DNA of 64,000 nucleotides from Nitrospirota bacterium (lineage in GTDB: Bacteria; Nitrospirota; Nitrospiria; Nitrospirales; Nitrospiraceae): positions 1,536,001-1,600,000 of the forward strand of contig CAVPBK010000006.1 of the NCBI GenBank assembly GCA_963701855.1. Reading direction: 5' to 3'. The position numbers were made by a program, and so were the translations under genes. Below are positions 13,270 to 34,305 of this stretch, piece by piece; position 1 is the stretch's first letter, and every line of letters begins with the position of its first letter. A model generated the notes under the pieces. The model had not been told where the DNA came from and did not search any database. It saw nothing but the letters and a program-made list of their open reading frames with translations.

Positions 13270-13490
13270 TGTGTTCCTCACGCGCTGCGTTCCAGACTTC
13301 CCATGCGGCATCGGCATTCATCGTCGCGATGCCAAGCCCAACGATCAGATCGGGCCATCCAGAAAGCGTATAGGCCGTCACGAACCCCGCCGCGATGATT
13401 GCGATGTTTGCCAGGGCATCATTTCGAGCTGACAGGAACGCTGCCCGTGTCAGACTGCCACTATGCGCTCGAAATTTGACCAGCGAAATA
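13270..13490 (-). pseudogene. C-terminal fragment of a cation efflux (CDF) membrane protein
   Basis: GSLTRAAFLSARNDALANIAII...WPDLIVGLGIATMNADAAWEV. Confidence 0.7.
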
Positions 13491-13597
13491 AACGGGGACA
13501 TTCTGCCTTTTTTAGCAGCGGTGGCCCCGCTTGCGCTCATCTCCAGGCTGGGCGCGAGACTAAACTCGCTGGCTACGTGCTCGATACGAGGATCGCC

Positions 13598-14045
13598 ATG
13601 TGGGTTGTCTTCCTCCTTTTTTTCCGGCTGCTCCCGCTGCTGCTCTCCGTCCACGCGGAAGACCTCGGCGAACTGAGTGCCAATCCGTACAATCCTGATT
13701 CCACGTCCAATCCATTCGGGGCCGGAAGCCCCTTCAAACCGGATGGCTTGAACAATCCCTTCAGCCCTTACGGCAGTCCATTCAGCAATCAATCGGCGAC
13801 GAATCCCTTCGCAACGGACGCACCGCGGCTCCTTGCTCGTCTCTCTGGTCTCTTTGGTTTCTCTGGTTATTTTCCGGTCCGGTCAACAAGACAGACCAAA
13901 TAGACCAGATAAACGAGATAGACCAGTTTCGTTTCTCCGTTCTCGCAGGACTCAATCAACAATCCCTACGGGCGCCGGGAGTCCCTACAGCCCCAACAGT
14001 CCCACGAATCTCTACGGTCGCGGCCTTCGGATTGAAGGACGCTGA
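13598..14045 (+). pseudogene. Secreted NPY/NPF-repeat protein interrupted by a palindromic element
   Basis: Signal + LSANPYNPDSTSNPFGAGSP...; coding resumes at ~13933 (SPFSQDSINNPYG...GLRIEGR*) after a 9-nt periodic insert. Confidence 0.7.
13836..13926. repeat. 9-nt periodic palindromic element, copy 1
   Basis: (C/T)TGGT(C/T)TCT units followed by AGACCAGAT units. Confidence 0.75.
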
Positions 14046-14153
14046 ATCTATTCGCTGAATCGCTCCATGGTGATCTCATGACTGCTTGACACCTCAGTCC
14101 TATACCGCGGTTCACGGGTTTATTGCCGTAGCCTTCGGTTGACGATTCTTCGA

Positions 14154-14840
14154 TCATGTCGACACCCGATCAATAACAAGTAGCGCCTCGTATTCACTAG
14201 GCAAGTTCTGAAGTGAGGCCCACCATGGCGGCGGTTCGCTTGGATGCGGTGGGCTCCACTCTCTCGTCTCCTCGCTCGAAACAGGGGTGAAATGCGTTTT
14301 CACTCGCAGACTTCTGGCGTTGAAATCTGCTCCTCTTAGGTCAGGGCATTGGGGCCGTATTTCGTTGATCATGTCTATGAATTCCTGAGAAGGAGTACAC
14401 TCGCCAATATAGACTTTCCCATGGACTACGTTCGTAATGACAAGGGCAGCGATGGGATTTGGAGTAGCGCAGCCCACCCATCGACAGGTGGATAATGCAT
14501 CAATTAATGTATCTACGAGTCGTGTCGCCACTTTCTTTCGTCTGTGGTGAGGAAGAACTGCCAGCGAGTCGATCCACCCAACAATCCCACAAGTGTAGCG
14601 AAGAATTCTGGCATAGAGGTAGCCAATAACTCCTTCGGTTTGATGTTGAGCTAGAAACAGAAGATCCGTACTTTCTAGCCTCTCCTTTGTTTTCTTTGGT
14701 CCCAATCGGTACGGTTTCCCCTGGGGGGTTGTACCAAAGCTGTTACAAAAAACGTGTGAAACGGCGTCCACCAAACTCAAGATGGCGGCAGCATCTCTTC
14801 CCTTATAAGACAGAAATTCATATGCATCGCGCTCGTTCAT
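14154..14840 (-). CDS. GNAT-family N-acyltransferase, paralog B
   Basis: WIDSLAVLPHHRRKKVAT motif A region; ATPNPIAA. Confidence 0.8.
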   Translation of the reverse strand: MNERDAYEFLSYKGRDAAAILSLVDAVSHVFCNSFGTTPQGKPYRLGPKKTKERLESTDLLFLAQHQTEGVIGYLYARILRYTCGIVGWIDSLAVLPHHRRKKVATRLVDTLIDALSTCRWVGCATPNPIAALVITNVVHGKVYIGECTPSQEFIDMINEIRPQCPDLRGADFNARSLRVKTHFTPVSSEETREWSPPHPSEPPPWWASLQNLPSEYEALLVIDRVST

Positions 14841-14907
14841 TACGAGTCAAATCTCCAGCTTAATCGTAACGATAGTTCGAGCGGGGAGGCGTGAGGGAGA
14901 GGAAACG

Positions 14908-15684
14908 TTAACGCTTGATAACAACCAGTGCTTCAAACGCGTTTGGCAAGTGCTCTATGAAATCCCACCACTTCGGAGATACCATTGCCCGTTGCGGTTC
15001 CCACTTTCTCTGATCAGAACGGGACAAAGGACTGAATCCCGTCTTGATCAGTAAATTCTCCTTATCAAGGGCACAACCCCGCAAGTCGAAGCAGTTCTCC
15101 TGTATTTCTTTTAACAACTGAAATATGGGGAAAGGCGGGAAACAACGGCCAACGTAGTGAATTCCAGGGACGCATCGAGTGATCACGTAGGCTGCTATTG
15201 GATTCGGTGTTGCAAATCCCACTAGTGGAGCCGCCTTTGTAGCCGCGACAAAGTTCTTTACCAGGGCGGTGGCGATTCCCTGCCGACGGTATATTGGGAG
15301 TACAGCCATTGATTCAATCCAGGCAACTCTGCCTGCAGATGAAGGTATTTCCTTCCCAAAGAGGTATCCCACTCCGGAATGTGTATCCCCTGCGATGAAT
15401 AGATAATCCGTACTCATCAGTCGCTCGCTCACGGACTTCGGGCCCATACGATACGGCTTGCCATCGGGTCTGAACCCGAAGCTTTCATTGAAAATGTGTG
15501 AGACCAATCTGACCGCATCAGGGTCGGAAGCTGCGGTGAACCCAGCCGACATCGAGATGCTGGATGGCACCACTGTTAGGCCCAGATCGCAGGTGTTATC
15601 TGAAGTGTGGGTTAGACCGAGATCATACGAATGTGAGGTTCCTTGAACGACTGAATCGCTTTTTGCTGACACCAGTGGAGTCAT
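14908..15684 (-). CDS. GNAT-family N-acyltransferase, paralog A (start may be 15552)
   Basis: WIESMAVLPIYRRQGIAT acetyl-CoA motif; ATPNPIAA. Confidence 0.8.
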   Translation of the reverse strand: MTPLVSAKSDSVVQGTSHSYDLGLTHTSDNTCDLGLTVVPSSISMSAGFTAASDPDAVRLVSHIFNESFGFRPDGKPYRMGPKSVSERLMSTDYLFIAGDTHSGVGYLFGKEIPSSAGRVAWIESMAVLPIYRRQGIATALVKNFVAATKAAPLVGFATPNPIAAYVITRCVPGIHYVGRCFPPFPIFQLLKEIQENCFDLRGCALDKENLLIKTGFSPLSRSDQRKWEPQRAMVSPKWWDFIEHLPNAFEALVVIKR

Positions 15685-15910
15685 GAGGCAGAAAAAGCGT
15701 GGTCTGACCCGAAGGATTCATTTGGTAACCGCTGAGATGAGCTGTTAACCGGCAGAGATGTATTGTTGTAAGCAAGCTTGATCGCTCTGTCAAGAGTCAA
15801 TCGTTTCGCCTTCCATCAGCCTATCTTGATGAAACCGTTTCACATGCAATGTGCTATACGCTAAAGTTTCCTGGCTTCAAAGTTCTCATACTATAGTGTC
15901 AATGCCAGAG

Positions 15911-16056
15911 TGTCTCACCCGAAGGGGTTCACCTCAACCAGGTGTGCTAATTTTGAGCTTCAATTCTTCACAAACGACCGAATTAGGTAGAAGCAATAGA
16001 ATCAGTAGAATCCCAGCAACTCATGGTTTTCAACGATAAACGGGGAAACCTTCGCT
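15911..16056 (+). repeat. Diverged att-like element end, copy A
   Basis: Aligns with 25933-26078 (TGTCTCA..GAGGGGTTCACC..GTGCTAA..TTCACAA..TAGAATC..AAACGGGGAA.CCTTCGC); lacks the tRNA part. Confidence 0.6.
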
Positions 16057-16142
16057 CCATCGATCGGTTAGTATCATCGGCCTTCTGTCACTCTCCCTCT
16101 TCCCTCTTGAATCCCCCACCGCTCCGTTCCATACTTTCGCCC

Positions 16143-18086
16143 ATGGTCCCCCCTCCCTTTGATCGCTCCCAGCCTCTTCAGGATCTCGAAACCGACGCCG
16201 CCCTACGCGCGATCCTCGAAGGGACCGCAACGGAAACGGGCCAGAAGTTTTTTGCAGCGCTGGTGCAGAACCTTGCCAAGACGCTCGGCACGCACGGCGC
16301 CTGGGTGACGGAATATTTTCCCGAGAAGCGCCGCCTCCACGCGCTCGCCTTCTGGATGGACGGCCAGTGGGTCAAGGACTATGAAGTCGATATCGCTGGG
16401 ACTGCCTGCGAGCGCGTGATCGATACGGCCAAGCTGGTGCATTTTCCAGACAGGATTCTGGAGCTCTATCCTCACTCAGAAGAATTGAAGGCAGCCGGCG
16501 CCGTCAGCTACTTGGGCGTACCCCTCCAGGATACGGACGGCCGCATTCTTGGTCACATGGCGGTGATCGACCGACGGCCGATTCCGGAGGAGCCGCGGGT
16601 CTATGCGATCTTTCAGATCTTCGCCGCGCGGGCCGCGGCGGAACTCCAACGGCTGCGGGCCGAAGCCGAGGTACGCGAGCGGGAAGAAAAAGTCGGGCGG
16701 CTCCTCAGCAGCGCAATGGACGCAATCATCGAGCTGGACGATCGGCTTCGCATCACCCGCGTGAATCCCGCCGCGGAGAAAGTCTTCCGCTGTCGAGCGG
16801 ACAAGATGGCCGGCCAGGATTTCCGGCGATTCGTGAGTCAGAAGGATACAGGCCGGCTCATGACTCTGATCGCCGAGCTGGACGGGCGCCCGGAAGGTCA
16901 GCAGTCGCGCTGGATTCCCGGCGGGCTCACCGCACGCTGTCCCGAGGGCGACTCGTTTCCTGCCGAAGCGACGCTCTCCCGTTTCGAACTGCATCGCCAG
17001 AAGTTCACGACCGTGATCCTCCGTAACGTGCACGATCGGGTGGAAGCGGAGCAGAAGATCCTGTCGCTGACCGCTGAAACAGAATTGTTGCGGGAAGAAC
17101 TCCAGTCCCTGCACCATGACGAGGCCTTGATCGGCGAGAGTCCGGCGCTTCGGCAGGTCCTGCGCGACATCGGCCAAGTTGCGGAGACCGACGCGACGGT
17201 GCTCATCATGGGCGAGACCGGCACCGGTAAGGAACTTGTGGCGCGCGCCATCCATGCGGCCGGCAAACGGCATGAACGGCCGCTGATCACCGTGAATTGC
17301 GCGGCGATTCCCGCGACCCTGATCGAGAGTGAATTATTCGGTCATGAAGCGGGGGCCTTTACCGGGGCGACCAAGAAGCGCGAGGGCCGCTTCGCCCTGG
17401 CGGACAAAGGCACCATCTTTCTCGACGAGATCGGGGAATTGCCGCTCGATCTGCAAGCGAAGCTGCTCCGCGTGTTGCAAGAAGGCGAGTTCGACCCGGT
17501 CGGAAGTGCCTCGACGAAGAAGGTCAACGTGCGCGTGATCGCTGCGACGAATCGCGATCTGGAGAAATCCGTTCGCGAGGGAGGATTCCGCGAGGATCTC
17601 TACTACCGGCTGAACGTGTTTCCGCTCCGCGTGCCACCTCTGCGCGAGCGCGGCGATGATGTGGTGCGTCTGGCCTCTGCCTTCGCTCGCCGGTTTGCCA
17701 CCAAGATGGGCCGCACCATCGCTCCGCTGACCGCCGACTGCACGCGCCGGCTCACGAGCTATAGTTGGCCCGGAAACGTGCGGGAGCTGCGGAACGTGAT
17801 CGAGCGGGCTGTGATCACGGCGACGGATGGACGCTTGAATCTGGATCGGGCCTTGCCGGAGGCGTCACCGGTTCACATGGCGCCTCCCGAAGACACCACC
17901 CCCTCTCCCGGCCAGATCCGGACAGCGAATGAATTCGAGCAACTCGAACGCGCCAATATTCTGTGCGCGCTCGACGCCGCCAAATGGAAAGTATCCGGCG
18001 AGAAGGGCGCGGCAACACTGCTCGGAATGAACGCTTCGACGCTCTCGTCACGCATGAAAGTGTTGAAGATTCAAAAACCCCGCTGA
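16143..18086 (+). CDS. GAF-PAS sigma-54 activator (FhlA-like)
   Basis: [33 protein letters not shown]. Confidence 0.95.
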
Positions 18087-18272
18087 GCAAAGATTTCTCC
18101 CGTCACTCTTTCTTCATCCCTCACTGCTCCAAGTTTTACCCTCATCGATTTACGAGATCTCACAAATCTTCTCGCGAGATTTCGCAAGTCACGAGATATC
18201 GGCGCTTGCCGATTTCCACTCATCTGATTCTAAGTCGCTGAATTTCCATCGTCTCGTTCAATTCTCCCGTGC

Positions 18273-18288
18273 TGGCATCGATGCTGCT
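18273..18288 (+). promoter_or_regulatory. Sigma-54 -24/-12 promoter with upstream CGAGAT repeats (candidate UAS, 18150-18200)
   Basis: TGGCATCGATGCTGCT: GG-N10-GC; three CGAGAT-type repeats ~80-120 bp upstream. Confidence 0.75.
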
Positions 18289-18434
18289 GTAGGGACTTGG
18301 CATAGGGTCATTCCCTCACAACAAGGAGCAGCATGATGACGACGATTTATGATTTGCTTACAGCTCACCTCACCATCACCACCCGACGGTCCAACCAATT
18401 ACATGCTGCGCCCGAGAGAGGAAGGAGGCACGCC

Positions 18435-20081
18435 ATGAAGTCCCCCTACATCATCGGGTTCGCTGCGGCTGCTCTGCTCGCCTGTGCCGCTCCCAGCTCG
18501 GGCACAGAGTCAACGGCGGCGCCCGCTCCGCCGAAGAGCCTTTCTGACACGGTCCCCCTCTATACGAATCTCGGCTCTCACCACAAACGCATCTCCACTC
18601 GAGTTCCGGCCACACAGCAGTATTTCGACCAGGGCCTGCGACTCGTCTACGGATTCAATCACTCAGAAGCGATCCGCTCGTTCACGCGCGCCGCAGAGTT
18701 CGATTCCACCTGCGCTATGTGCTACTGGGGGATCGCACTCGCCTACGGCCCGCACATCAATGCTCCAATGGACTCGGTGAGCGGAGTCGCCGCGTACGCG
18801 GCGGCGCAGAAAGCGCTGGCGCTCAAGTCCCACGCCACGGCGCCTGAGCGCGCGTACATCGAGGCGCTCGCGCAGCGCTACGCGGCGGTCCCGCCGACCG
18901 ATCGTGCCCGTTTGAACACGTTGTACTCGCGCGCGATGGAGCGGGTTGCCCACACCTACGCCAGCGACCTCGACGCCGCGACCCTGTACGCTGAATCGCT
19001 GATGGACCTCCGCCCGTGGAACTACTGGCGACCCGACGGTACGCCCTACCCCGGCACCAATGAAATCGTGCGCCAGCTGGAGAGAGTCATCTCGCGCGTC
19101 CCGAACCATCCCGGCGCGTGCCATTACTACATCCACGCGGTCGAAGCGGTGAACCCGCAGGCCGCGGTGCCGTGCGCCGAGCGGCTCGCTCGGCTTATGC
19201 CGGGCGAAGGGCACATGGTCCACATGCCCGCACATATCTACATCCGCGTCGGACGGTGGAACGACGCCATGCAGGCCAACCAACACGCCATCCACACTGA
19301 CGAGGCGTTCATCGAAGGACAGCATCCGATGGGCGTCTATCCGCTCGCGTACTACCCGCACAACATCCACTTCCTCGCCTTCGCCTCCACGATGGCGGGC
19401 CGCAGTGCGCAGGCGATCGAGGCGTCCAATACACTCACCTCCAAGGTGAACCTCGACGCCGCGCGCCAGGTCGGGTTACTACAAGAAATGCTGCCGTACC
19501 ACGCGCTCACGCTCACGACGTTTGGAAAATGGGACGACGTGCTTGCCGACCCGCTTCCACCGGCGGACATCCGCTTCTCCTACGCCATGGCGTACTATGC
19601 CCGCGGTGTGGCGCACGCCGCCAAGGGACAATGGGCGGAGGCGGAAGCCGCGCTCGACACAGTCACGGCGATCCACACCGCGACGCCCGAAGGTGCCGAT
19701 GGCAAGACGGCGCTCTCGATCGCCGTGCACGCGCTGTCCGGCGAGATCGCCACCCGCCGCGGCGACCTCGACAAGGGCATTAACCACTTCCGGGAGGCGG
19801 CCAAGATCGAGGACACGGGACTCTACTTCGAGCCGCCCAAGTGGTACTACCCCATTCGGCACTCGCTCGGCGCCGGGCTGTTGAAGGCGGGACAACATGC
19901 CGAGGCCGAGGAGGTATATCGCGAGGATCTCCGGCGCTTCCCCGAGAACGGCTGGGCCCTGTTTGGACTCGCGCAGACGTTCCGGGCGCAGGGGAAGAAC
20001 ATCGAAGCGGCCGCAACGGAAGCGCGCTTCCGCCGAGCGTGGGCGAGCACGGACGTAACACTGACGGCATCGAGGTTCTAG
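18435..20081 (+). CDS. Secreted/lipo TPR protein with His-rich motifs
   Basis: GGAGG RBS; LLAC lipobox; YGFNHSEA, HPGACHYYIH, HMVHMPAHIY, YPHNIHF; TPR-like helices. Confidence 0.85.
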   Translation: MKSPYIIGFAAAALLACAAPSSGTESTAAPAPPKSLSDTVPLYTNLGSHHKRISTRVPATQQYFDQGLRLVYGFNHSEAIRSFTRAAEFDSTCAMCYWGIALAYGPHINAPMDSVSGVAAYAAAQKALALKSHATAPERAYIEALAQRYAAVPPTDRARLNTLYSRAMERVAHTYASDLDAATLYAESLMDLRPWNYWRPDGTPYPGTNEIVRQLERVISRVPNHPGACHYYIHAVEAVNPQAAVPCAERLARLMPGEGHMVHMPAHIYIRVGRWNDAMQANQHAIHTDEAFIEGQHPMGVYPLAYYPHNIHFLAFASTMAGRSAQAIEASNTLTSKVNLDAARQVGLLQEMLPYHALTLTTFGKWDDVLADPLPPADIRFSYAMAYYARGVAHAAKGQWAEAEAALDTVTAIHTATPEGADGKTALSIAVHALSGEIATRRGDLDKGINHFREAAKIEDTGLYFEPPKWYYPIRHSLGAGLLKAGQHAEAEEVYREDLRRFPENGWALFGLAQTFRAQGKNIEAAATEARFRRAWASTDVTLTASRF

Positions 20082-20376
20082 CGAATGAGTTACCTTCTGA
20101 CTCATTTACAGGAACTCTACAACCTCGGGTCAGACTCCGGCTCCTCGCGTTGTTAACACAGTCGTGCCTACGTGGCCTGCGCCACGAGCTCAATAGGTAT
20201 AGCGGGCTTCGTGGGGGATCCGCCTCGTGGTTTCGTCAGGATGCCCCACGATTGGACACGTCGATCCTCGAAGTATCAGCGGGCCTTAGTGGAAGAACAC
20301 GCATTCGCGCATGATAAATTAGTCAGAGGAACGGCACGAGAAATCGCTTTAGATGATCTATCACCAGGAGGGGGTC

Positions 20377-20682
20377 ATGTACGATCTTAAGAATCTAAAC
20401 AAGATGAAGGATCTCGAGACTCATGCACCAGAAGCCATGCGCGCGTTTGTAGCTTTCGATAAGGCCGCCTTGGCCGGCGGCGCAATTCCGAGGAAGTATA
20501 AGGAGTTGATGGCACTCGCGGTCGCATTTACGACACAATGCCCGTATTGTATCGAGCTTCACTCAAGCAGGGCGCGAGAGACAGGCGCGTCGGATCCGGA
20601 GATTGCCGAGGCCGTTCTCGTCGCTGCGGCATTACGCGCGGGTGGGGCGATCACCCATGGCACACATGCCATGAAGGGTTGA
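20377..20682 (+). CDS. Carboxymuconolactone decarboxylase/AhpD family protein
   Basis: KELMALAVAFTTQCPYCIELH. Confidence 0.9.
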   Translation: MYDLKNLNKMKDLETHAPEAMRAFVAFDKAALAGGAIPRKYKELMALAVAFTTQCPYCIELHSSRARETGASDPEIAEAVLVAAALRAGGAITHGTHAMKG

Positions 20683-21031
20683 TAAACTTCAGATATGAGA
20701 GCGAGCCGTTTCCTCCGTGAACTGTGCGCTGGCTCTCCTCTACCTGTGCGAGAGCCAACTTCATTTCAACAAGGAGGACACAAGATGGCTACCAACAACA
20801 AACCGCGAATACGCTGCGATGCGGCAACATCAAGGCGACGATCTGACAGAACATCAGCGAGAACGGTCTGTTCTTCTCAACGACTTTCTCTCGCCCATTC
20901 AGGGATCAGTCCGGCGCGTGGCGCAATGGGACCTCGTTTGGCCACAATGCTCTTGAGGCGCTCGTCAGCGTTGCACGTGAAGCCAAGGAGTGGATTGCCG
21001 CTCACGCCTTGAAGGGCTGAGCTGCTTCACT

Positions 21032-21069
21032 GGGAAGCCTCCGACATCCGGGGGCTTCCCTTTTATTTC
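21032..21069 (+). terminator. Intrinsic terminator
   Basis: GGGAAGCCTCCG...CGGGGGCTTCCC followed by TTTTATTT. Confidence 0.75.
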
Positions 21070-21144
21070 GAATGAGTTTCTAGTAGAGAGTGGAGAAGGG
21101 ACACTGTGCGGATTATTCCAAGACTGGAACGGTTTCTTCCCTCA

Positions 21145-21465
21145 TCAAGCCGGTAAGAGCGTTCCCCTGTGTTGCTCAATATGCTTCCTGACCTTACCCG
21201 GTAGAGCTTGCTCGGCAAGGCGCAGCTCATACGTCTTCTGCAGATTCATCCAGAATTCAGCTGTCGTATCAAACAATGTCGCCAGACGTACCGCCGTATC
21301 ACCCGTAATGCCTCGCTGCCTTTTGATAATGGCCGTGATCCGGTTCGCAGGAACTTTGAGGGCCTTGGCGAGCATATTGGCATTGATCGGCGGCTCTGCC
21401 GACTTCATGAACTCCTCAAACAAGATTTCTCCCGGATGAACCGGCCGCATTCCATTCTTGATCAT
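21145..21465 (-). CDS. higA: HigA antitoxin (XRE HTH)
   Basis: RPVHPGEIL...RGITGDTAVRLA..F.TTAEFWMNLQ. Confidence 0.95.
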   Translation of the reverse strand: MIKNGMRPVHPGEILFEEFMKSAEPPINANMLAKALKVPANRITAIIKRQRGITGDTAVRLATLFDTTAEFWMNLQKTYELRLAEQALPGKVRKHIEQHRGTLLPA

Positions 21466-21478
21466 GACAGGTTCTCCT

Positions 21479-21767
21479 TCAGTGATAATCGGTGATTGCA
21501 ACCTCATACGGTTCGTCGGCCTTCCAGAGAAAACAAATCCTCCACTGATCGTTGATCCTGATGCTGTGCTGCCCGATCCGATCCGATCCGATCCCCTCTC
21601 AACATCTCCAACCGGTTTCCCGGTGGTGAAAGCAGGTCCTTGAGATCCGACTCGTTATCGAGCATTGTGAGTTTGCGTTCAGAAACCTTCTTGAAGCTGG
21701 AGAATTCCCTCACCATCTCTCCCGCAAAGAACTGCTGTGTCTTTTTGTCCCGGCACCTTCTGATCAC
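21479..21767 (-). pseudogene. higB: HigB toxin frameshifted at a (CGATC)4 tract
   Basis: DLLSPPGNRLEMLRGDRIG, then a shift; other frame QHSIRINDQWRICFLWKADEPYEVAITDYH*. Confidence 0.9.
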
Positions 21768-21809
21768 GATCTATAACCCACCTTAGTTTTACGAGTTACG
21801 TACTACGCA

Positions 21810-22001
21810 TGTGTTAATTTGTGCTGAAAATCTGCACAATGGATCGCATTCTACAGAATCAATGGAATGGATAGAATCGTCTCAAGTCCTTGTTCGCAAA
21901 GAAAAAACGGGGAAGCCTTCGCAAAATCAAGCCGGTGATATTTTATTCTTTTCGAGCTTTTAAGGCGAGGGTCCTGGGTTCGAGTCCCAGCCGGCTCACC
22001 A
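21810..22001 (+). repeat. att-like element end, copy B, ending in the 3' half of tRNA-Lys(TTT) with CCA
   Basis: CTTTTAA anticodon loop + GAGGGTCCTGGGTTCGAGTCCCAGCCGGCTCACCA; near-identical to 25960-26148. Confidence 0.85.
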
Positions 22002-22499
22002 CATCTTTCAACAACTTCGATGCGTGCTGCTCGTCAGCCGATTCCTCGGGTACGGTTTTTGGTGCGGTTCCTAATCGGGTGAGACCCTCAACCGCATGGA
22101 ACAGGTGCGCCGGATGGGGCATTTTCGTACTTCGAAAATTTATAGAAAGTGAGCAATTGTGATCAGACAGATGTGATCCTACAGGCATAATGTTAGGTGC
22201 ATCAAAAGCTGTTTTCTTGCCAGGGGGCGGACATGCTTGCCAAAATCCATGTCAGCGGGTTGTCCTACTTTTGCACCGACGCTTCGTCAGGCCTTTATCC
22301 CGTTTGGCACGGAGGTGCTCGCACAAGTGGGTCCTCTCCCGAGACCGTCAAACATTAACGTGATGCGGGTCATAGGAGTTCACACTGATGGCGACGTTGA
22401 ATTCTCAGACCGTCCTGAATCAAGTCGAAGTATCCGCGATTCCGTCCGGTCAGAGAAACTGATGCTTGACTCCTTGAGAGCATCCGAGGGTGACAATCG

Positions 22500-22847
22500 A
22501 TGAAGCCTCAATTATTACAGTGTCAAAGCAATTGTCGGCCAGGATGCAGCATCCTGGCCCTCGTGATCGTTTTGTTCGTTCTGCCGTATTTTACTGATGT
22601 GGCCTACTATGCAGACCAAACCCCAACCCATGATGCACAAGAGAATTCAAAGGTTGAAGGAAAGTCTAAAGCGAACTATAACAAGACTCCTCTATCTGTC
22701 GCCGCCGTTCAAAGCGATTCTGTAGTTGGGCACAGTCTTACCTCACGGAATGTCTATAAGAGCATCCCCTCTCTGGCTAGCGGAACCTCCTCTTTTCAGA
22801 ATCTTTTTCTTACCTTGCTCATCTCCAGGCCTCCTCCCGTCGCGTAA
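22500..22847 (+). CDS. Small protein with N-terminal TM/signal and C-terminal SRPPP
   Basis: GAGGGT RBS; hydrophobic ILALVIVLFVL; ends LISRPPPVA. Confidence 0.6.
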   Translation: MKPQLLQCQSNCRPGCSILALVIVLFVLPYFTDVAYYADQTPTHDAQENSKVEGKSKANYNKTPLSVAAVQSDSVVGHSLTSRNVYKSIPSLASGTSSFQNLFLTLLISRPPPVA

Positions 22848-23105
22848 CCGATTCAGTCCTTCAATCTCGCGATGGGATAGAGATAAGCGTGAGTCGCTGG
22901 AGTGATTCGCCAATTTTGTCCCCTGCCAGACTTTCCCCTTTAGTTAGGGTGGGCTTGAACGCTCGAGGCTTTATTGAAGTCCGTTGAATTTTGAATGTGT
23001 GGCTCCCTCCGTGGAATTCTTCACGGAAACAAACCCAAATGGAGCCACTGAACAGGTCGATTCAAATCGAAACCGTAGGGCAGGAACCCTAGAACAGGGA
23101 AATGC

Positions 23106-24413
23106 ATGAATAGCGAGACTGATATTTTCACCAAGTGTCGTGCTTTTGAAGACGCGAAACGTGTGCAGGCTGCGGGTGTCTATCCATTTTTTAGACCGAT
23201 TGAAGCGACTATTGGATCTGCTGTTGTCACCCATGGCCGGCGTCGAGTGATGATCGGATCGAATAATTATTTGGGTTTGACTCATCACCCCCGCGTTCTA
23301 GCCGCAGCTAAAGCCGCAATTGATCATTTTGGGACGGGCTGCACGGGGTCCCGTTTTCTCAACGGGAACCTCGTCCTTCATGAACAGCTTGAGCAAGAGC
23401 TCGCGCATTTTCTTGGCAGGGAGGCGTGCCTGGTTTTTGCGACGGGCTTTATTGCTAATCAGGGAAGTATTTCCTGCATCGTTGGCCGCCACGATGTCAT
23501 TTATTGCGATCGTGAGAACCATGCCTCCATCATCGAAGCCACTCGGTTGGCGATTGGCGATACCATCAAGTTTCGCCACAATGATATGGCGGATTTGGAA
23601 CGAATTCTGATCCGCACTCGCGGAAAATATCAAGGCGCGTTGATTGTCGCCGACGGCGTATTCTCCATGTCGGGCGACATCTTCAAGTTCCCGGAAGCGG
23701 TTTCGTTGGCCAAAAAGTACCATTGCCGTATGTACATTGATGACGCGCATGCTTTGGGCGTCATGGGTCCCAAAGGCCAGGGCACTGAATCTCACTTCAA
23801 CATGCTGGGCGCAGCAGACCTGGTCATGGGAACATTTTCCAAGTCGTTTGCCTCGATCGGGGGTTATGTTGCGGGTGCCGCTGACGTAATCCATTATATC
23901 AAGCATAAGGCTCGATCGTTCATCTTCAGCGCCGCAATGCCTCCTGCCGCGGCGGCCGCGGCGTTGGAATGTCTCAAGATCGTGATGGAAGATACGTCAC
24001 ATCTTGAAAGCCTCTGGCGCAATGCCGGCAAGATGAATCAGGGTTTACGCCGAATGGGTTTTAATACATTGAATAGCAGTACTCCCATCATCCCTCTCTT
24101 TATTGGTGATGATCATAGGGCGTTTCAGTTTACCCAGAAGTTGTATGAACAGGGCGTTTTTGCAACCCCGGTGGTGTGTCCCGCGGTTCTAGAGGGCTGT
24201 GCGTTAATTCGTACAAGCTATATGGCCACCCACACCAATGAGGATCTGGATTACGCTCTCAATACCCTTGAAACGTTAGGTAAGGAATTCGGAATCATTG
24301 GTAAGCGTGGTCGCCATCAAGAACATGCCTTTCTTGAGCAGCCGCATTTTGGAATTTCAAGTGTTGACCTGATTAAGGTAAAACAGCCTAGGGTGTTGTT
24401 GAAGGTGAGCTAA
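23106..24413 (+). CDS. PLP alpha-oxoamine synthase, serine palmitoyltransferase-like
   Basis: GVYPFFRPIE N-terminus, GSNNYLGL, GCTGSRFLNG, NHASI, DDAH, GTFSKS (PLP Lys). Confidence 0.85.
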   Translation: MNSETDIFTKCRAFEDAKRVQAAGVYPFFRPIEATIGSAVVTHGRRRVMIGSNNYLGLTHHPRVLAAAKAAIDHFGTGCTGSRFLNGNLVLHEQLEQELAHFLGREACLVFATGFIANQGSISCIVGRHDVIYCDRENHASIIEATRLAIGDTIKFRHNDMADLERILIRTRGKYQGALIVADGVFSMSGDIFKFPEAVSLAKKYHCRMYIDDAHALGVMGPKGQGTESHFNMLGAADLVMGTFSKSFASIGGYVAGAADVIHYIKHKARSFIFSAAMPPAAAAAALECLKIVMEDTSHLESLWRNAGKMNQGLRRMGFNTLNSSTPIIPLFIGDDHRAFQFTQKLYEQGVFATPVVCPAVLEGCALIRTSYMATHTNEDLDYALNTLETLGKEFGIIGKRGRHQEHAFLEQPHFGISSVDLIKVKQPRVLLKVS

Positions 24414-24588
24414 GCCCGGGTCCGACTTGGATACTTTTGGTGATGTTGCTTGGGGAGTTTATACGAGCGATCCATATTGAGTTCGGCCTTTGCGTGTCGC
24501 TGTCCGCGATCTTCTGGATGGTGAGGAAGAACCTACTGCTGTCCAAGACAGGATTTACCCCACGACGATCAACTCAACCGGCGAAAAC

Positions 24589-24984
24589 ATGAATTGGCAT
24601 AGGTTGGCTTGGATGCAGCGTATTGCGGCGGCCGCGATCGTAGTATTTTGGATCACGTTCTGGGCAGATCATGACGGCGTACTCCCAGATGTCTTGGATT
24701 ATGAGTCGAATTTCTTCATCCCAGACCTAGTTTGGATCGCGGGACTCTTACTAACTGCCAGTTATTGGCTCAAGAACAACGACACTCGTGGGATTGTGGC
24801 AAGTTCTGCAGCGGCGGGCGGACTGGTTTTTCTGGGTCTACTGGACGTTCATTTTAACTGGCGCCACGGTCAATACGTCTCTTCACCCCAAGGTTGGCTC
24901 AACGTGGTTGTGAATGTCGGATGCATCTGGTTTGGCCTCTGGACCCTCGTCGTGATGATGCGCGGTTCTGTGAGGGAGAAGTGA
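24589..24984 (+). CDS. Four-TM hypothetical membrane protein
   Basis: Four hydrophobic segments; YESNFFIPD motif; GTGA overlap with the next gene. Confidence 0.7.
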   Translation: MNWHRLAWMQRIAAAAIVVFWITFWADHDGVLPDVLDYESNFFIPDLVWIAGLLLTASYWLKNNDTRGIVASSAAAGGLVFLGLLDVHFNWRHGQYVSSPQGWLNVVVNVGCIWFGLWTLVVMMRGSVREK

Positions 24985-25859
24985 CGGAAAAGCGGATCCT
25001 AGTGACGGGAGCGTCATCCGGAATCGGCCGGGCTTGCGTCTTGCGATTGGCAGCTGCGGGCCACCGGGTGATTGGGGTGTCCCGATCGGAAATCGCGACC
25101 GATGCGAAGTCCGGCCCTGGGCCACTTTCCGGCAACATCGAGTACTTGCGGATGGACATCGCGGATGCGGATACAGTGCAGCAAACAGTGGAAGAAGCTG
25201 TCAGTAGGATGAGTCGGCTCGACGCGGTTATCAACTCGGCAGGCATCGCGGTAGCAGGATCGCTGGAGGATACGCCTCTGGAACTTGTACGCTCACAGAT
25301 GGAGACGAATCTGCTCGGGGCTATCTACTTGACGCGCGCAGCAGTACCGCATCTTCGCCGTAGTGCTCCCAGCTGCCTGATCCACGTTTCTTCTCTGGCT
25401 GGAGAAGTTGCGCTTCCGTATCAGGCGCTCTACTGTGCCACCAAATTCGGGCTGAATGGGTTATGCGAGGCGCTCCGCTACGAACTCGAGCCGCAAGGGA
25501 TTCGGGTAATATCGGTCCAGCCGGGCAGTGTACAAACGGAGCTGACTAAGAACCGTCAGACCGTTGCTGCCAGCGAGCCCTATCAGGCTTCGGCTAACGC
25601 AGCGCTGGCTGTAAACGATGCTGACGAGGAATCCGGAGTGGGTCCGGACGTAGTTGCTCAGATGGTGGAGGAAGCGATTTGCGATGAGAAGGCAATGGGG
25701 TGGCAAACCGTCGGTCACTTTAAGGAGCGGATAACTGTCCCCGCGCGGCGCCTATTGCCAGATCGCTGGTTTCGACGAATCATCGCATCTCATTACGCTA
25801 TTGCCTCGGCTCACTTCAAGCAACGCGCAGGGAAAGCACCGGATGACGAGGTGGGCTGA
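24981..25859 (+). CDS. SDR oxidoreductase, 3-ketodihydrosphingosine reductase-like
   Basis: TGASSGIG, NSAG, YCATK; downstream of the SPT-like gene. Confidence 0.85.
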   Translation: MTEKRILVTGASSGIGRACVLRLAAAGHRVIGVSRSEIATDAKSGPGPLSGNIEYLRMDIADADTVQQTVEEAVSRMSRLDAVINSAGIAVAGSLEDTPLELVRSQMETNLLGAIYLTRAAVPHLRRSAPSCLIHVSSLAGEVALPYQALYCATKFGLNGLCEALRYELEPQGIRVISVQPGSVQTELTKNRQTVAASEPYQASANAALAVNDADEESGVGPDVVAQMVEEAICDEKAMGWQTVGHFKERITVPARRLLPDRWFRRIIASHYAIASAHFKQRAGKAPDDEVG

Positions 25860-25932
25860 CGCCAATTCAGCACCTCTTATAGTCAAAATTTGTGGGTTCT
25901 TGCGCTGTGGTGTTTCAGCATTTCACCCAGTC

Positions 25933-26156
25933 TGTCTCAACCGAGGGGTTCACCCCAAAGGGATGTGCTAAATTCGTGCTAGAAATCTTCACAATGTGGA
26001 TCGCATTCTACAGAATCAATGGAATGGATAGAATCGTCTCAAGTCCTTGTTCGAAAAGAAAAACGGGGAAGCCTTCGCAAAATCAAGCCGGTGATATTTT
26101 AGTCTTTTCGAGCTTTTAAGGCGAGGGTCCTGGGTTCGAGTCCCAGCCACCGCACC
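25933..26156 (+). repeat. att-like element end, copy C, with tRNA-Lys 3' fragment
   Basis: Direct repeat of 21810-21993; acceptor end diverged (CCACCGCACC). Confidence 0.85.
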
Positions 26157-26348
26157 GCTTCGTACTGTAGACAGAACCTTCAAAACGAATTTCTACTTTG
26201 TCATTCCTGGGAACCATCTTCCAGCGCCAACTTGCAAGGAGTTGTAGCTCGTTTTAGTCAAAAACGTGTCGCGCAAAACCCGATTCATTTGCAACCTTGC
26301 ATAGTAGTGCTATCTTAACCGTAAGAGCCACGAATGGAGGTTTGTTCC

Positions 26349-26801
26349 ATGAAGCCTATTCTCTATCACGACATTGACGGTGTGTTATTCGGTGAGTACG
26401 CCGGAGAATTCCAGCTCCGTCCAGGTACGAAGACGTGGATCAAGTGGGCGCGGGAACACTTCGACATTGTGTTTCTTACCATGTGGAAACACGAAGAGAT
26501 TGATACACTGTTAGCCGTTCTCACAGTGGAGAAATGCATGAAATCCCTTCAAGCTCCAGGCTTCCATTCGGCAAACTGGCAGAAGTACGAAAACAAGGAA
26601 CTCTGGGTGGCTGATGCGGTAGCGAAGACCGGCAAACGTGACTGGCTTTGGATCGATGATGAGGTGCCAAACGTGGATAGGCTCCAGCACCTTGGCCTTG
26701 ATCCGAATCGGTGTTTCAAGGTCAACTCAAAGGGAGCCAACGAGCTAGAAGTGCTCAAAGAAAAACTGCTCCAACTTCTCAGCCGTCCCCAAGCTGCATA
26801 A
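26349..26801 (+). CDS. HAD-superfamily protein
   Basis: DIDGVL motif I, LT motif II, WIDD motif IV; GGAGG RBS. Confidence 0.75.
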   Translation: MKPILYHDIDGVLFGEYAGEFQLRPGTKTWIKWAREHFDIVFLTMWKHEEIDTLLAVLTVEKCMKSLQAPGFHSANWQKYENKELWVADAVAKTGKRDWLWIDDEVPNVDRLQHLGLDPNRCFKVNSKGANELEVLKEKLLQLLSRPQAA

Positions 26802-26833
26802 GCCTTAAAAATCTTGCCAAAAATGTGTCAGGG

Positions 26834-27780
26834 TGAGCTTCCCCCGAAATTTCGTCTTCCAAGGGTGACGTAGAATCGCAGTCATCATGAAAGGGAGGGC
26901 GATGAAGATACCGAAGCAGCACTATCCGAGCGAGTTCAAGGACTTGGCGGTGAAGCGAGTCAAAGACGGACTGTCAGCTGGCGCGGCGGCCAAGGAGTTG
27001 GGGCTGGTCGAACAAACGCGACGGAACTGGGTCAAGGCGGCCGCGGCAGACACGCTCAACGGGGCGGGAGCTCCGGTGGTCACACCGGAGCAGATGGCAC
27101 TATCACGACTGCGCGCCGAGCACGTGCGACTGAAGCGGGGAACGAAATCCTAAAAAAAGCGACGGCAGACTTCGCAAGGGACACGCTGTGACGTATGCCT
27201 GGATGGACGTGCAGCGCATGGCCTACACCCTGGACAAGATGTGTGCGGTCCTGGCGGTGAGCGAAAGCGGTTATCGCGCCTGGAAGCACGGCGGCACGCC
27301 CGATCGCACACGGCTGACAGACGCCCAGATGCTGGCGCTGACCCGCGCCAGTCACACAGAACTCAAGGGCGCCTACGGTGATCAACGCACTGACGATGGC
27401 GTGGTTCCGACGGAAACCGGCCGTGGGGCTGCTGCATCACTCGGATCGGGGCAGCCAGTACGCCAGCCAACCCTTCCAGGTCAAGCTGACGGTCTATGGC
27501 ATGGAGGGCTCCATGAGTCGCAAGGAAAATTGTTGGGATAACGCGCCCATCTAGAGTTGGTTCAACAGTTTTAAGAACGAGCGGGTCCATGGGTTGCGTT
27601 ATGCCACACGCGCAGAGATGACGGCGGCGAGCTTCGAGTACATTGAGGTGTTCTACAACCGGACGCGACGGCACTCGAGGTTGGGCTACCAGTACCGATG
27701 CAGTTTCTGGAGGATTGGCGTCTGGCTCAACATGAGAAAAACCTGGTAGCATGAAACTCGCCCGATGGAAGACGAAAAAC
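26834..27780 (+). mobile_element. Decayed IS3-family element
   Basis: Left IR TGAGCTTCCCCCGAAATTTCGTCTTCC, partial right IR GGAAGACGAAA; OrfA, A7G site, internally deleted OrfB ([16 protein letters not shown]). Confidence 0.85.
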
Positions 27781-32604: not shown

Positions 32605-33148
32605 CGAAAACCTTCTATGTGTTAGTAAGTGACAAATGACCTGACCCAGCCTGCGCTCTTCGAATATCTAAATCAACACATCACCCGAAGAACCAACCGG
32701 AATCGACCGGTCCCAGTCATCGCAGTTGGTCGTAGCGACACTCACAAAGACAAAATGATCCACATTGATCGAGCGTGCGAGCCGAAATGATTTGTTTTTG
32801 ACCCTCAGGCGAGGGTACGCTGATGCCCGCACAAAATCGAGAAGGCCCCCCCACGTTCTGCGCTAGGGTTTTTGACAACCATGCCTACCTGACTTGCGCC
32901 TTGAGAAAACAGAGCATCTACAGGCTTCAGTATCAGTTTACAACTCGACCGGCTCCACACGTTTGATATGTGGATGCCACAGTCTATTTCGTAGGTTCTG
33001 AGCGCATGTAGGTGCGATTCGAAGAACTGGATTAGAAACTGGATTGTTGAGGGGTTTTAGGAGATACGACTGAGAGGAATAACCTTGACCCTCCCCTGAT
33101 TTCACAGCCACCTCCATACGGGGGAGAATGATGAAATTGGAGGTCAGT

Positions 33149-33445
33149 ATGCCCAAAACAACCCGGCGTCAGTTTACCGACGCATTCAAGTCCGAGGCCG
33201 TACGGCTCACGCGGGAATCGGGTCGGCCGGTGGCCCAGGTGGCGCGGGAGCTCGGAATTTCGGACAATGTGCTATATCGCTGGAGGAGTGAGCAGCAACA
33301 GGTCGAATCCCAGGGCCGCACGCGCCAGGCGGTGCGCACTGAGCAGGATGAACTGACACGACTGAAACGGGAAAATGAGACGCTGCGGAAGGAACGGGAT
33401 TTTTTACAACGTGCGGCGGCGTTCTTCGCGAGGGAATGCGAATGA
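33149..33445 (+). CDS. IS3 transposase OrfA
   Basis: RRQFTDAFKSEAV...VARELGI..LYRW, leucine zipper. Confidence 0.92.
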   Translation: MPKTTRRQFTDAFKSEAVRLTRESGRPVAQVARELGISDNVLYRWRSEQQQVESQGRTRQAVRTEQDELTRLKRENETLRKERDFLQRAAAFFARECE

Positions 33446-34305
33446 AATACCTCGCGATCCAGGAGCACGACCGTCGCTATCCGATCCGGCCGATGTGCCG
33501 CGCCCTTGCCGTCTCGGCTGCGGGCTATTACGCGTGGCGCTCACGGCCTGAAAGTACCCGATCAGTGTCTGCCCGGACCGTGCTCTCAGCCATCCGGGTG
33601 ATCCATCGAGAGTCCCGTGAGACCTACGGCAGTCCTAGCATCTGGGATGCCCTGGTCAAGCAGGGACACCGCATTGGCGAGCATCGCGTCGCCCGGCTGA
33701 TGCGCCAGGACGGCATCCGGGCCAAGACCGTGAAGAAGTGGCGTGCCACCACCCAGTCCCAGCATCGGTTCCCCGTGGCGGCGAACACCCTCAATCGCCA
33801 GTTCACGGTCGAGTCTCCGAATCGGGTGTGGGCCGGGGACCTCACCTACGTGTGGACCACAGAGGGCTGGCTCTACCTGGCCGTGATCCTCGATCTGTAC
33901 TCGCGCCTCGTGATCGGCTGGGCGATGGGCCACCGGCTGACCGTGGAACTGGCCGAGCAGGCCCTCACGATGGCGCTGGTAAACCGGAACCCAAGGGCCG
34001 GGCTTCTGCACCACTCGGATCGCGGGAGTCAGTATGCGGCTACGCGCTACCAGCGTCTGCTCGGCGAGCACGGCATCACCCCCAGCATGAGCCGCACCGG
34101 CAACTGCTGGGACAACGCCTGTGTCGAACGCTTCTTCGGGACCCTTAAGCGCGAGCTCGTGTCCCATCGGCGCTATGCAACCCGTGACGACGCGACACGG
34201 GATATCTTTGAGTACATTGAGGTGTTCTATAACCGGAGACGCCGTCACTCGACCCTCGGCGATGACTCCCCGACCGAGTACGAAGCGAGGACGGAGGTGG
34301 CTTAA
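33442..34305 (+). CDS. IS3 transposase OrfB (DDE)
   Basis: [27 protein letters not shown]. Confidence 0.92.
   Translation: MKYLAIQEHDRRYPIRPMCRALAVSAAGYYAWRSRPESTRSVSARTVLSAIRVIHRESRETYGSPSIWDALVKQGHRIGEHRVARLMRQDGIRAKTVKKWRATTQSQHRFPVAANTLNRQFTVESPNRVWAGDLTYVWTTEGWLYLAVILDLYSRLVIGWAMGHRLTVELAEQALTMALVNRNPRAGLLHHSDRGSQYAATRYQRLLGEHGITPSMSRTGNCWDNACVERFFGTLKRELVSHRRYATRDDATRDIFEYIEVFYNRRRRHSTLGDDSPTEYEARTEVA

Follow-up and report, generated by a model that had tools for sequence, protein, structure and literature searches.

Does a 4-kb segment of a Nitrospira-like genome encode the start of sphingolipid synthesis, and could that segment move between genomes? The segment lies in a 64,000-nucleotide stretch from a Nitrospirota bacterium of the family Nitrospiraceae (assembly GCA_963701855.1, contig CAVPBK010000006.1, positions 1,536,001 to 1,600,000 of the forward strand), which we call the window. 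An initial annotation had described a minimal mobile module here, with four co-oriented genes, including those for a possible serine palmitoyltransferase (SPT) and a possible ketosphinganine reductase, between two near-identical repeats. From comparisons of sequences, we give a probability of roughly 55% to the reading that this integrase-less, mosaic cassette carries the genes for the two opening steps of sphingolipid synthesis. With its SPT-type enzyme, coupled membrane protein, and reductase, the cassette probably makes the sphingolipid backbone.

Three of the four genes in the 4 kb between the direct repeats are co-oriented and solid as genes: the alpha-oxoamine synthase (AOS), a small membrane protein (TM4), and a short-chain dehydrogenase/reductase (SDR). 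The fourth, orf115, is doubtful. We rejected another open reading frame (ORF), orf88 (22237-22503), as a gene: it matches no family, and similarity to the closest related locus begins only at 22427. All of the motifs quoted in the initial annotation (GTFSKS, GVYPFFRPIE, PYQALYCATKF, TELTKNR, and LPDRWFRRIIASHYAI) are present in the translations. The ORFs are:

23106-24413, + strand: AOS, alpha-oxoamine synthase; putative SPT of the Bacteroidota/delta-proteobacterial subgroup, from Pfam, NCBIfam, the PDB match, a neighbour-joining tree, and active-site residues
24589-24984, + strand: TM4, 131-amino-acid four-helix membrane protein; proposed membrane partner of the SDR; the ATG at 24589 is common to the related locus L005
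24981-25859, + strand: SDR of the classical type; putative 3-ketosphinganine reductase, from Pfam adh_short and NCBIfam KdsR as the best model
22500-22847, + strand: orf115, doubtful small ORF; an ORF of the same length lies upstream of AOS in the related locus L001

The synthase and its relatives

AOS matches Aminotran_1_2 from Pfam (177.6 bits), and its top NCBIfam model is SPT-CFB (494.5 bits), which leads the other models by about 90 bits (BioF/Kbl family, 403; BioF, 375; Kbl, 371). Its best match in the PDB is the SPT of Sphingobacterium multivorum, at 380 bits. The runners-up are a BioF/Kbl-type enzyme from Thermus (299 bits), the SPT of Sphingomonas (252), Kbl (249), two cysteate acyltransferases (231 and 222), and BioF (217).

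The active site tells a similar story. Of 16 active-site and core residues of the S. multivorum enzyme that are described in PMC10196870, 14 are identical in AOS (N52, G80, S81, F83, L84, H138, S185, D210, A212, H213, T241, S243, K244, and F272); the exceptions are Y27, which is replaced by F, and M271, which is replaced by I. AOS keeps the Schiff-base lysine (K246, equivalent to K244) and the His/Asp/His contacts of pyridoxal phosphate (PLP), with H139 equivalent to H138 and D212/A214/H215 equivalent to D210/A212/H213 (roles as given in PMC10196870). The initial annotation took GTFSKS around the lysine as a mark of SPTs, and this motif is found in all three of our SPT references and in none of the five Kbl, BioF, or HemA references, which all have GT(L/M)(S/G)KA.

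We placed AOS in a neighbour-joining tree (Kimura-corrected distances, 89 sequences, 391 columns, 100 bootstrap replicates). The reference proteins came from a plasmid collection and were labelled by passing NCBIfam cut-offs (two SPT-CFB, one SPT-beta, two Kbl, two BioF, and one HemA). The other sequences came from related loci, the best 80 of 336 that were confirmed by a genome scan with AOS; for 7 loci whose match crossed a stop codon, we retained the longest piece. In 98 of 100 replicates, the window's AOS fell into one clade with the SPT-CFB references and every one of the 80 loci, to the exclusion of Kbl, BioF, HemA, and SPT-beta, and a clade that includes the SPT-beta reference as well was found in 84 of 100. 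The phylogeny proposed as a check in the initial annotation thus puts AOS with SPT rather than with BioF, Kbl, or HemA, and the claim of an SPT-like synthase agrees with the tree, the top model, and the top structural match. That AOS is a serine palmitoyltransferase is well supported by these comparisons.

Two points weigh on the other side. First, AOS scores below the equivalog cut-offs of all three SPT models (SPT-CFB, 494.5 of 640 bits; SPT-beta, 353.9 of 500; SPT-alpha, 280 of 670). Second, the tree was built by neighbour joining only, with references that were named by NCBI's pipeline rather than assayed proteins. Given the scores below cut-off, AOS might use another substrate than serine, and make a 1-deoxy base from alanine, a base derived from glycine, or a sulfonolipid precursor from cysteate. 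SPTs do accept alanine and glycine at low efficiency (PMC10196870), and 1-deoxyceramides are described as abundant in nature (PMC11334938). We consider a non-serine substrate very unlikely: the residues that contact serine in the S. multivorum enzyme (N52, G80, S81, T241, and S243) are all kept, the solved cysteate acyltransferases match AOS far less well than the S. multivorum SPT does (231 and 222 vs. 380 bits), and 98% of the replicates join AOS to the SPT-CFB references.

Where did this SPT come from? A protein search with AOS found at least 8,000 proteins at E ≤ 1e-30, and the 120 matches listed were 72-100% identical. The named proteins among them were from Nitrospira sp. (80-81% identity) and from Bdellovibrionales, Bdellovibrionia, or Oligoflexia (73-77%). 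Among the best 80 loci, four are from metagenome-assembled genomes (MAGs) of Nitrospira or Nitrospiraceae (L001, L004, L005, and L006; 80-86% identity) and about 30 are mostly from MAGs of Bdellovibrionota (60-76%). The remaining loci, at 51-55% identity, belong to Nitrospirota (chiefly Thermodesulfovibrionales), Planctomycetota, Zixibacteria, and other groups.

In the tree, the five Nitrospira-type copies (the window's and those of the four MAGs) are monophyletic in 100 of 100 replicates and are nested within a Bdellovibrionota subclade in 94 of 100, with other Bdellovibrionales branching outside. In four loci of the Bdellovibrionota group whose neighbours we identified with Pfam, the gene order is conserved: prfA, prmC, an EPSP-synthase-family gene, a HIT gene, one other gene, AOS, a GNAT gene, ruvCAB, and lpxC. 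(In several loci with this core synteny, a tRNA-Pro lies farther downstream.) In the four Nitrospira MAGs, the context of AOS is different each time, and none of the genes that flank it in the window recurs there. The GC content at third codon positions (GC3) is 54% for AOS, 63% for dnaX, and 74% and 81% for two neighbouring genes. Judging by these relatives, which are MAGs, the SPT looks to have moved from a Bdellovibrionota-type donor into a Nitrospira lineage; in this analysis, the host is placed with Nitrospira by its closest loci. A similar SPT (68% identity, of the Bdellovibrionota type) is found at 6424-7605 of locus L030, from a MAG that is labelled as a gammaproteobacterium (uncultured Alkalilimnicola sp.). 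Its neighbours are PagL, esterase, and Zn-ADH genes, with no adjoining GNAT gene, and it reflects either another transfer or a binning error.

The initial annotation knew of no sphingolipid producers in this group and took the host to be unexpected. That was overstated, as the four Nitrospira or Nitrospiraceae MAGs carry close copies. The surprise is further lessened by triads of epimerase, SPT, and GNAT genes in many Nitrospirota loci and by the broad distribution of Spt-like genes, which one study reports in 38 phyla, or about 40 (PMC11334938). Among the papers listed in a literature search, judged by titles and abstract openings, we found no report on a Nitrospira SPT or on Nitrospirota sphingolipids; the phylum list of PMC11334938 lay outside that search.

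The neighbours of AOS in these relatives support a role for the family in sphingolipid synthesis. Considering only the loci with at least 1.3 kb of flanking sequence, a GNAT protein of about 380 amino acids is encoded directly downstream of AOS in 26 of 28 loci of the Bdellovibrionota group and 34 of 39 other loci (60 of 67 combined). The downstream protein falls in GNAT acetyltransferase clusters of the Atlas (score 0.98; template-modelling score of the structure, 0.96). Just upstream of AOS, 31 of 41 of the "other" loci have a gene from the epimerase family (extended SDRs). An epimerase-type gene might instead suggest a threonine dehydrogenase with its Kbl, but the three more distant synthases (51-55% identity) that we scored matched SPT-CFB best (562-580 bits) and are therefore not Kbl. 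Genes for Spt, bCerS, and CerR are often clustered (PMC11334938), and the layout of GNAT and epimerase-type genes around the AOS relatives matches this trio.

None of the five Nitrospira-type copies, including the window's, has the GNAT gene beside AOS. In the window, we found neither a bCerS-like GNAT nor the epimerase gene (by tblastn and by running Pfam on 69 ORFs), and of the candidate ceramide genes, only TM4 and the SDR are linked to AOS. Two adjoining GNAT-family ORFs lie at 14154-15684 (- strand), in a patch of low GC content (about 50%). Neither is related to the bCerS-like GNAT that accompanies SPT at other loci, and we rejected both as ceramide synthases, as bCerS-like queries did not match the window. 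Leaving aside these two small GNATs, there is no N-acyltransferase of either candidate kind in the cassette or among the 69 ORFs scanned with Pfam, which counts against the proposed reading of the cassette.

Other neighbours of AOS in the Nitrospira MAGs might also act on lipids. Three of the four have a gene for a B12-binding radical SAM protein with DUF4070 beside AOS (L004:5817-7505, L005:11272-12978, and L006:734-2392). These proteins are 83-92% identical to each other and have weak NCBIfam matches to radical SAM methylases of the lipid or hopanoid type; they could modify the sphingoid base or the acyl chain. In L006, a DUF2156 (LPG_synthase_C) acyltransferase is encoded directly downstream of the SPT (6421-7395), in the slot of the other lineages' GNAT. 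It is a candidate for a non-orthologous ceramide synthase, from one locus only.

The reductase and its membrane partner

If AOS makes 3-ketosphinganine, is the SDR the reductase for the second step? It is a classical SDR by its Pfam match (adh_short, 159.6 bits) and by its motifs: TGASSGIG and YCATK (for TGxxxGxG and YxxxK) and the serine in VSSLAG. An Arg directly after strand beta-2 of an SDR goes with a preference for NADPH; the window's SDR has this Arg, and NADPH is its probable cofactor. The best NCBIfam model is KdsR, the reductase family of Bacteroides, at 192.8 bits and over its full length (model positions 3-267). Among 42 aligned relatives of the SDR, 41 match KdsR at E ≤ 1e-45, and no other model reaches KdsR's best E-value (3.6e-91). 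For the SDR orthologue in L005, KdsR is also ahead (204.5 vs. 184.1 bits).

These scores also show how distant KdsR is, which tells against a simple assignment. The SDR reaches less than half of the KdsR cut-off (192.8 vs. 400 bits), it is just 12 bits above the generic subfamily PRK06179 (180.8 bits), and none of the 42 relatives reaches the cut-off. The family is small: three clusters are 85-91% identical, and about 40 more are 49-60% identical. Among plasmid records (tblastn with the SDR), nothing was over 35% identical, and none of the 25 matches listed was annotated as KDSR. We conclude that the SDR belongs to a sister family that is related to KdsR rather than orthologous to it, and that the case for the proposed function draws as much on linkage as on sequence similarity. 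The initial annotation's KDSR-like SDR keeps its top model, and gains from linkage, but it is weakly supported; that the SDR is a 3-ketosphinganine reductase is plausible but unproven.

The linkage involves TM4. The GTG start codon of the SDR overlaps the stop codon of TM4 (GTGA) and is preceded by a Shine-Dalgarno sequence, AGGGAG. AlphaFold2 predicts with confidence that TM4 is a four-helix membrane bundle (pLDDT of 94.7). A Foldseek comparison of this model with the PDB produced nothing at E ≤ 0.001; generic four-helix bundles came closest (EBP, template-modelling score of 0.62 with E of about 1). TM4 has just four close clusters, and a profile search of 1.84 billion representatives found 213 members at E ≤ 1e-3, of which 38 were at E ≤ 1e-10. 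Five residues are invariant across 31 sequences (W21, F42, D46, D86, and G116). Running Pfam on 31 relatives of TM4 gave only scattered noise, and there was no model for the family in the copy of Pfam that we used. An Atlas lead that connects TM4 to DUF8058 (score 0.95; 14-21% of cluster members) was unconfirmed, as the Pfam scans gave no match to DUF8058.

Fusions hint at the function of TM4. We used Pfam to scan 15 longer or tandem members of the family. In four of these, TM4 is fused to adh_short, with TM4 at the N terminus (P0255 and P0320) or in the reverse order (P0321 and P0371). Another (P0315) has an epimerase domain joined to TM4. Because of the fusions and the translational coupling, we propose that TM4 and the SDR act together on a lipid substrate at the membrane, with TM4 as an anchor, a substrate-presenting subunit, or an enzyme. 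The initial annotation had TM4 as an unknown component of the pathway, and this is plausible in the form of a partner for the SDR, given the fusions to SDR domains elsewhere. A structure prediction for the complex of SDR and TM4, using our own alignments, gave a score of 0.00 against a mark of 0.32 and speaks neither for nor against binding.

The SDRs that are fused to TM4 are just 32-34% identical to the window's SDR. Nor is the family confined to sphingolipids, which weighs against our reading: in two of the 15 proteins (P0324 and P0380), TM4 is joined to UbiA prenyltransferase domains. TM4 proteins may serve several membrane lipid pathways beyond those with SDRs.

Two of the Nitrospira MAGs are informative about how the cassette was assembled. 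In L001, the closest relative, the shared block comprises orf115, AOS, and about 110 bp downstream. In L005, an SDR that is 86% identical to the window's lies with TM4 upstream of AOS, in the slot of the epimerase gene, of which a 32-amino-acid remnant is left. Because orf115 and AOS are shared with L001 while TM4 and the SDR are shared with L005, the window's cassette is, by these similarities, a mosaic, and its SPT block and TM4-SDR block have different histories. The TM4-SDR pair is thus linked to this SPT lineage in two arrangements (downstream in the window and upstream in L005). In the other two MAGs (L004 and L006), the epimerase gene is retained, divergently oriented, upstream of AOS.

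The same loci supply evidence against a fixed partnership. After the shared block, L001 has an unrelated SDR (30% identity, PRK07024-like) and no TM4. In L005, TM4 has lost about 85 bp, including the first helix and the reading frame. We considered L001's orf128 as an analogue of TM4 and rejected it: it has no hydrophobic segment and does not match the TM4 profile. L001 is island-like, with an rve_2 integrase-core fragment (8806-9141) on one side of its block of orf115, SPT, and SDR genes, and with tRNA-Arg, tRNA-Pro, and a phage-integrase-family ORF (13357-14497) on the other.

The small ORF that comes with AOS in L001 is itself odd. orf115 has the same length in both loci and is 71.6% identical in its amino acids and 84.5% identical in its nucleotides. 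Its substitutions are spread evenly across the codon positions (18/14/22), in contrast to those of AOS, which are dominated by third positions (40/27/71). It has a single N-terminal hydrophobic helix (by hydropathy) and no match in Pfam or NCBIfam. A small membrane protein that evolves fast is one possible explanation for it, and a conserved regulatory leader is another. Within orf115 lies a perfect 23-bp palindrome (22538-22560; GGCCAGGATGC-A-GCATCCTGGCC) that is 91% conserved in L001 and that might act, upstream of the SPT, as an operator or as an RNA hairpin.

We propose the following pathway. In the first step, the PLP-dependent SPT (23106-24413) would condense L-serine with an acyl thioester to form 3-ketosphinganine; this reaction is well supported by the similarity of AOS to SPTs. 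The likely donor is acyl-CoA, as no gene for a dedicated acyl carrier protein (ACP) or for an acyl-ACP synthetase is linked. In the second step, we infer that the SDR (24981-25859) would reduce the 3-keto group to give sphinganine. TM4 would hold the soluble reductase at the membrane or hand the lipid substrate to it. Since no N-acyltransferase is linked, ceramide would be formed via an unlinked gene, or else the free base would be the product.

Alternatively, the SPT might be the only sphingolipid gene, and TM4 and the SDR might form an unrelated, membrane-associated oxidoreductase module in a recombination-prone island. The low KdsR score with its 12-bit lead, plasmid matches that never exceed 35% identity and are not annotated as KDSR among the 25 listed, the different SDR beside L001's SPT, the broken TM4 in L005, and the fusions of TM4 to UbiA and to AIRS domains would all fit. 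Still, we think that an unrelated module is rather improbable, as the pair has become tied to this SPT lineage twice, in different arrangements; in L005 it fills the slot of an epimerase-type reductase; and KdsR is matched by 41 of the 42 relatives with the best E-value of any model.

The slot in L005 raises another possibility, which is that the SDR is CerR-like. An unlinked acyltransferase would N-acylate 3-ketosphinganine and the SDR would then reduce the oxo-ceramide, so that free sphinganine is never formed. The epimerase gene that TM4 and the SDR replace in L005 is the CerR-like slot that is occupied in 31 of 41 related loci, and this inverted order of steps is described for Caulobacter (PMC11324152). 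We judge a CerR-like role unlikely, however, because the window's SDR is classical, and nearest to the Bacteroides KdsR model, rather than of the extended, epimerase type; because the Bacteroides thetaiotaomicron reductase BT_0972 acts on free 3-ketosphinganine (PMC9278070); and because no acyltransferase is linked in the window.

The flanking repeats and mobility

If the cassette does encode these two steps, are its ends those of a mobile element? The repeats and the neighbouring features are:

21808-21998, + strand: left direct repeat; its last 70 nucleotides (21929-21998) are a pseudo-tRNA
25963-26148, + strand: right direct repeat; its tRNA-Lys-like part stops after the T arm and the 3' strand of the acceptor is missing
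~15905-16085, + strand: third, diverged copy of the repeat; 5' non-tRNA part only, without the tRNA-like 3' end
21145-21767, - strand: HigB/HigA toxin-antitoxin pair, immediately left of the left repeat, in the flank and outside of the cassette
26887-27541, + strand: IS3-type transposase remnant, 0.7 kb right of the right repeat, in the flank

The initial annotation described two near-identical direct repeats of about 190 bp, each ending in the 3' half of a tRNA-Lys, with no integrase between them, and all of this held up. The two copies are 94.1% identical over 187 bp (blastn of left vs. right, E = 1e-77), which is far beyond chance, and a repeat search found two families of direct repeats with a spacing of 4156/4157. 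We compared both copies to true tRNA-Lys(UUU) genes from three loci. In both, the part that aligns reaches from the anticodon loop (CTTTTAA) across the variable region and the T arm; the left copy runs on to GGCTCACCA and is tRNA-Lys-like as far as CCA, and the right copy diverges past the T arm. The 5' halves of the repeats are not tRNA-like, and the left copy is a pseudo-tRNA that lacks the D arm. Rfam's tRNA model spans 21929-21998 of the left copy at 24.8 bits, under the gathering threshold of 29 (E = 0.093), and besides this sub-threshold hit, Rfam found no family in 20500-27500. ARAGORN found no tRNA at the repeats; the only tRNAs that it found in the window are Ser (52649) and Val (59262). 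Pfam identified no integrase domain in the five ORFs that we scanned between the repeats.

Genomic islands that target tRNA genes, and integrase-less elements that are mobilised in cis, have direct repeats with the 3' part of a tRNA around accessory genes. As an inference from this pattern, the flanking repeats would be junctions from successive integrations at a tRNA-Lys gene. Related islands would have accreted in tandem at one tRNA-Lys site, giving the repeated unit of 140 bp plus the 3' half of tRNA-Lys; the distal junction of each island would be the end of the element plus the displaced 3' part of the tRNA, and the third copy would be older and decayed.

The third copy is about 6 kb upstream. 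By blastn, it is 71% identical over 114 bp (15943-16055, E = 1e-8), and in the alignment it shares about 40 bp farther 5' with the right copy, whose similarity to it begins about 25 bp before the start of the repeat. As it has no tRNA part, it complicates the interpretation of the repeats as attachment (att) sites. Several other findings also argue against an integrated element. There is no tyrosine integrase within 34 kb of the cassette and no intact tRNA-Lys in the window; the window's sole tyrosine recombinase is at 60770-61732, and the recombinase genes nearest to the cassette belong to IS3 elements, a remnant at 26887 and an intact copy at 33128. In GC content, the cassette lies just 3 points under the window's mean. 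The repeat is missing from all 80 of the related loci that we fetched.

Rather than att sites, the repeats might be members of a dispersed repeat family or the product of a local duplication, in which case the cassette would be an ordinary, fixed segment of the chromosome. The lack of an integrase or intact tRNA, the extension of the repeat about 140 bp past its tRNA part, the third copy (~15905-16085), and the absence from relatives all suit this explanation, and we take it as a serious possibility, albeit the less favoured one. Against it stand the tRNA-Lys 3' halves at the ends of both copies, which share one orientation and are a hallmark of integration at tRNA genes. The setting is also island-like, with HigBA, IS3 remnants, and patchy GC content; the context of the SPT differs in each of the four Nitrospira relatives; and in L001, the SPT adjoins tRNA-Arg, tRNA-Pro, and an integrase.

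On balance, we prefer integration at a tRNA-Lys gene as the origin of the repeats. For the mobile module of the initial annotation, the repeats and the tRNA halves are real, but the integrase and the intact tRNA are lacking and the third copy remains a complication. The repeats are long enough and similar enough for deletion of the cassette by RecA. Today, they would allow only loss or transfer by homologous recombination, or else by an integrase that acts in trans. That the cassette is mobile is plausible but unproven.

The flanks have some features of their own. HigA exceeds its NCBIfam cut-off (88 bits), and the HigB-like protein is marginally under its Pfam cut-off (26.7 vs. 27 bits). In the IS3 remnant, HTH_Tnp_1 from Pfam matches 26887-27153, and the next ORF does not match any family. 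An intact, two-ORF insertion sequence of the IS3 family (HTH_Tnp_1 and rve) lies 7 kb to the right of the cassette (33128-34305), and 26887-27541 is a decayed relative of it. Between the third repeat copy and HigBA (16000-20100) are genes for a GAF-PAS sigma-54 activator and a 582-amino-acid TPR protein. This region has 62% GC and 74-81% GC3, compared to 55% GC for the rest of the window, and may itself be foreign.

Significance and comparison with known systems

What is most interesting here is the pairing of TM4 with the SDR and the way in which this pair has replaced an epimerase-type reductase. Two solutions for the reductase are known in bacteria, CerR (Caulobacter) and KdsR (Bacteroides), and the locus suggests a third, with a KdsR-related SDR and a dedicated membrane protein. 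Our boldest proposal, which is tentative and more doubtful than not, is that TM4 and the SDR are an unrecognised two-component 3-ketosphinganine reductase that displaced the CerR-like reductase in Nitrospira, and that it sits on a transferable cassette with tRNA-Lys repeats and an SPT derived from Bdellovibrionota.

If so, then within one genus the pathway would have switched from acylating before reducing to reducing before acylating, and one type of reductase would have replaced another at the same locus, as L005 suggests. The cassette could pass sphingoid-base synthesis between genomes as a single unit. The transfer of an SPT from predatory bacteria of the Bdellovibrionota type to nitrite-oxidising Nitrospira would be documented, and such a case matters for understanding the spread of membrane lipid traits and for using sphingolipids as biomarkers in the environment. 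The TM4 family, with its 213 representatives, would gain a testable role. The wide spread of Spt-like genes in bacteria would be unchanged, and the locus is a modest extension of the known genetics of bacterial sphingolipids.

How does the cassette compare to known systems? The closest for AOS are the SPT of S. multivorum (PDB 3A2B and 8GUH) and those of Bacteroidales (NF047600). AOS has the same fold and length as the S. multivorum enzyme, with about 380 residues aligned at 380 bits, and it is 49% and 44% identical to two of the Bacteroidales SPTs. It shares with this group the GTFSKS lysine motif, an N terminus of the G(V/I)YP(Y/F)FR type, and 14 of the 16 named residues. Like them, AOS has no linked ACP, as is expected for this subgroup (PMC9386255). 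Unlike them, it has a C-terminal extension of 35 residues and scores below the equivalog cut-off, and its clade, which is known here from sequence, is centred on Bdellovibrionota rather than Bacteroidota.

For the SDR, the comparison is with BT_0972 of B. thetaiotaomicron, a soluble, NADPH-dependent SDR of about 31 kDa that acts on free 3-ketosphinganine (PMC9278070), and its family KdsR (NF049977). Both are classical SDRs of about 290 amino acids with GxxxGxG and YxxxK, and KdsR is the best model for the window's SDR; yet its score of 192.8 vs. 400 bits is too low for the SDR to count as an orthologue under the NCBI cut-off. The window's SDR also differs in being translationally coupled to a membrane protein, and we know of no membrane partner that has been described for BT_0972. 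Another difference from Bacteroidota is that the window's SDR is linked to the SPT; in Bacteroidota genomes, Spt, bCerS, and CerR are described as not being close together (PMC11334938).

The eukaryotic reductases offer a parallel for the membrane partner. Human FVT1 and yeast Tsc10 carry their own membrane anchors, and their substrate, the 3-keto base, is embedded in the membrane. In the window, the SDR would be tied to the membrane by a separate protein, TM4, and in some relatives by fusion. TM4 is no simple terminal helix but a protein of its own, whose conserved four-helix bundle has invariant Asp residues, and its partnership with the SDR is our proposal.

As for the cassette's ends, tRNA-targeted islands likewise have direct repeats with a tRNA 3' part, and a toxin-antitoxin pair and IS remnants are nearby here. 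The cassette departs from such islands in lacking an integrase and an intact tRNA at either end, and its repeat is far longer than the usual core site, with a third copy that has no tRNA part.

Finally, the ceramide locus of Caulobacter (Spt, bCerS, and CerR) resembles the loci of the SPT relatives, which carry an epimerase-type reductase, the SPT, and a GNAT of about 380 amino acids; two of the Nitrospira relatives retain the epimerase gene. (The likeness is by protein family and not by comparison to the Caulobacter sequences.) The window differs from the Caulobacter locus in having no AcpR/AasR pair, no GNAT, and no epimerase gene, and in place of that reductase stand a classical SDR and TM4.

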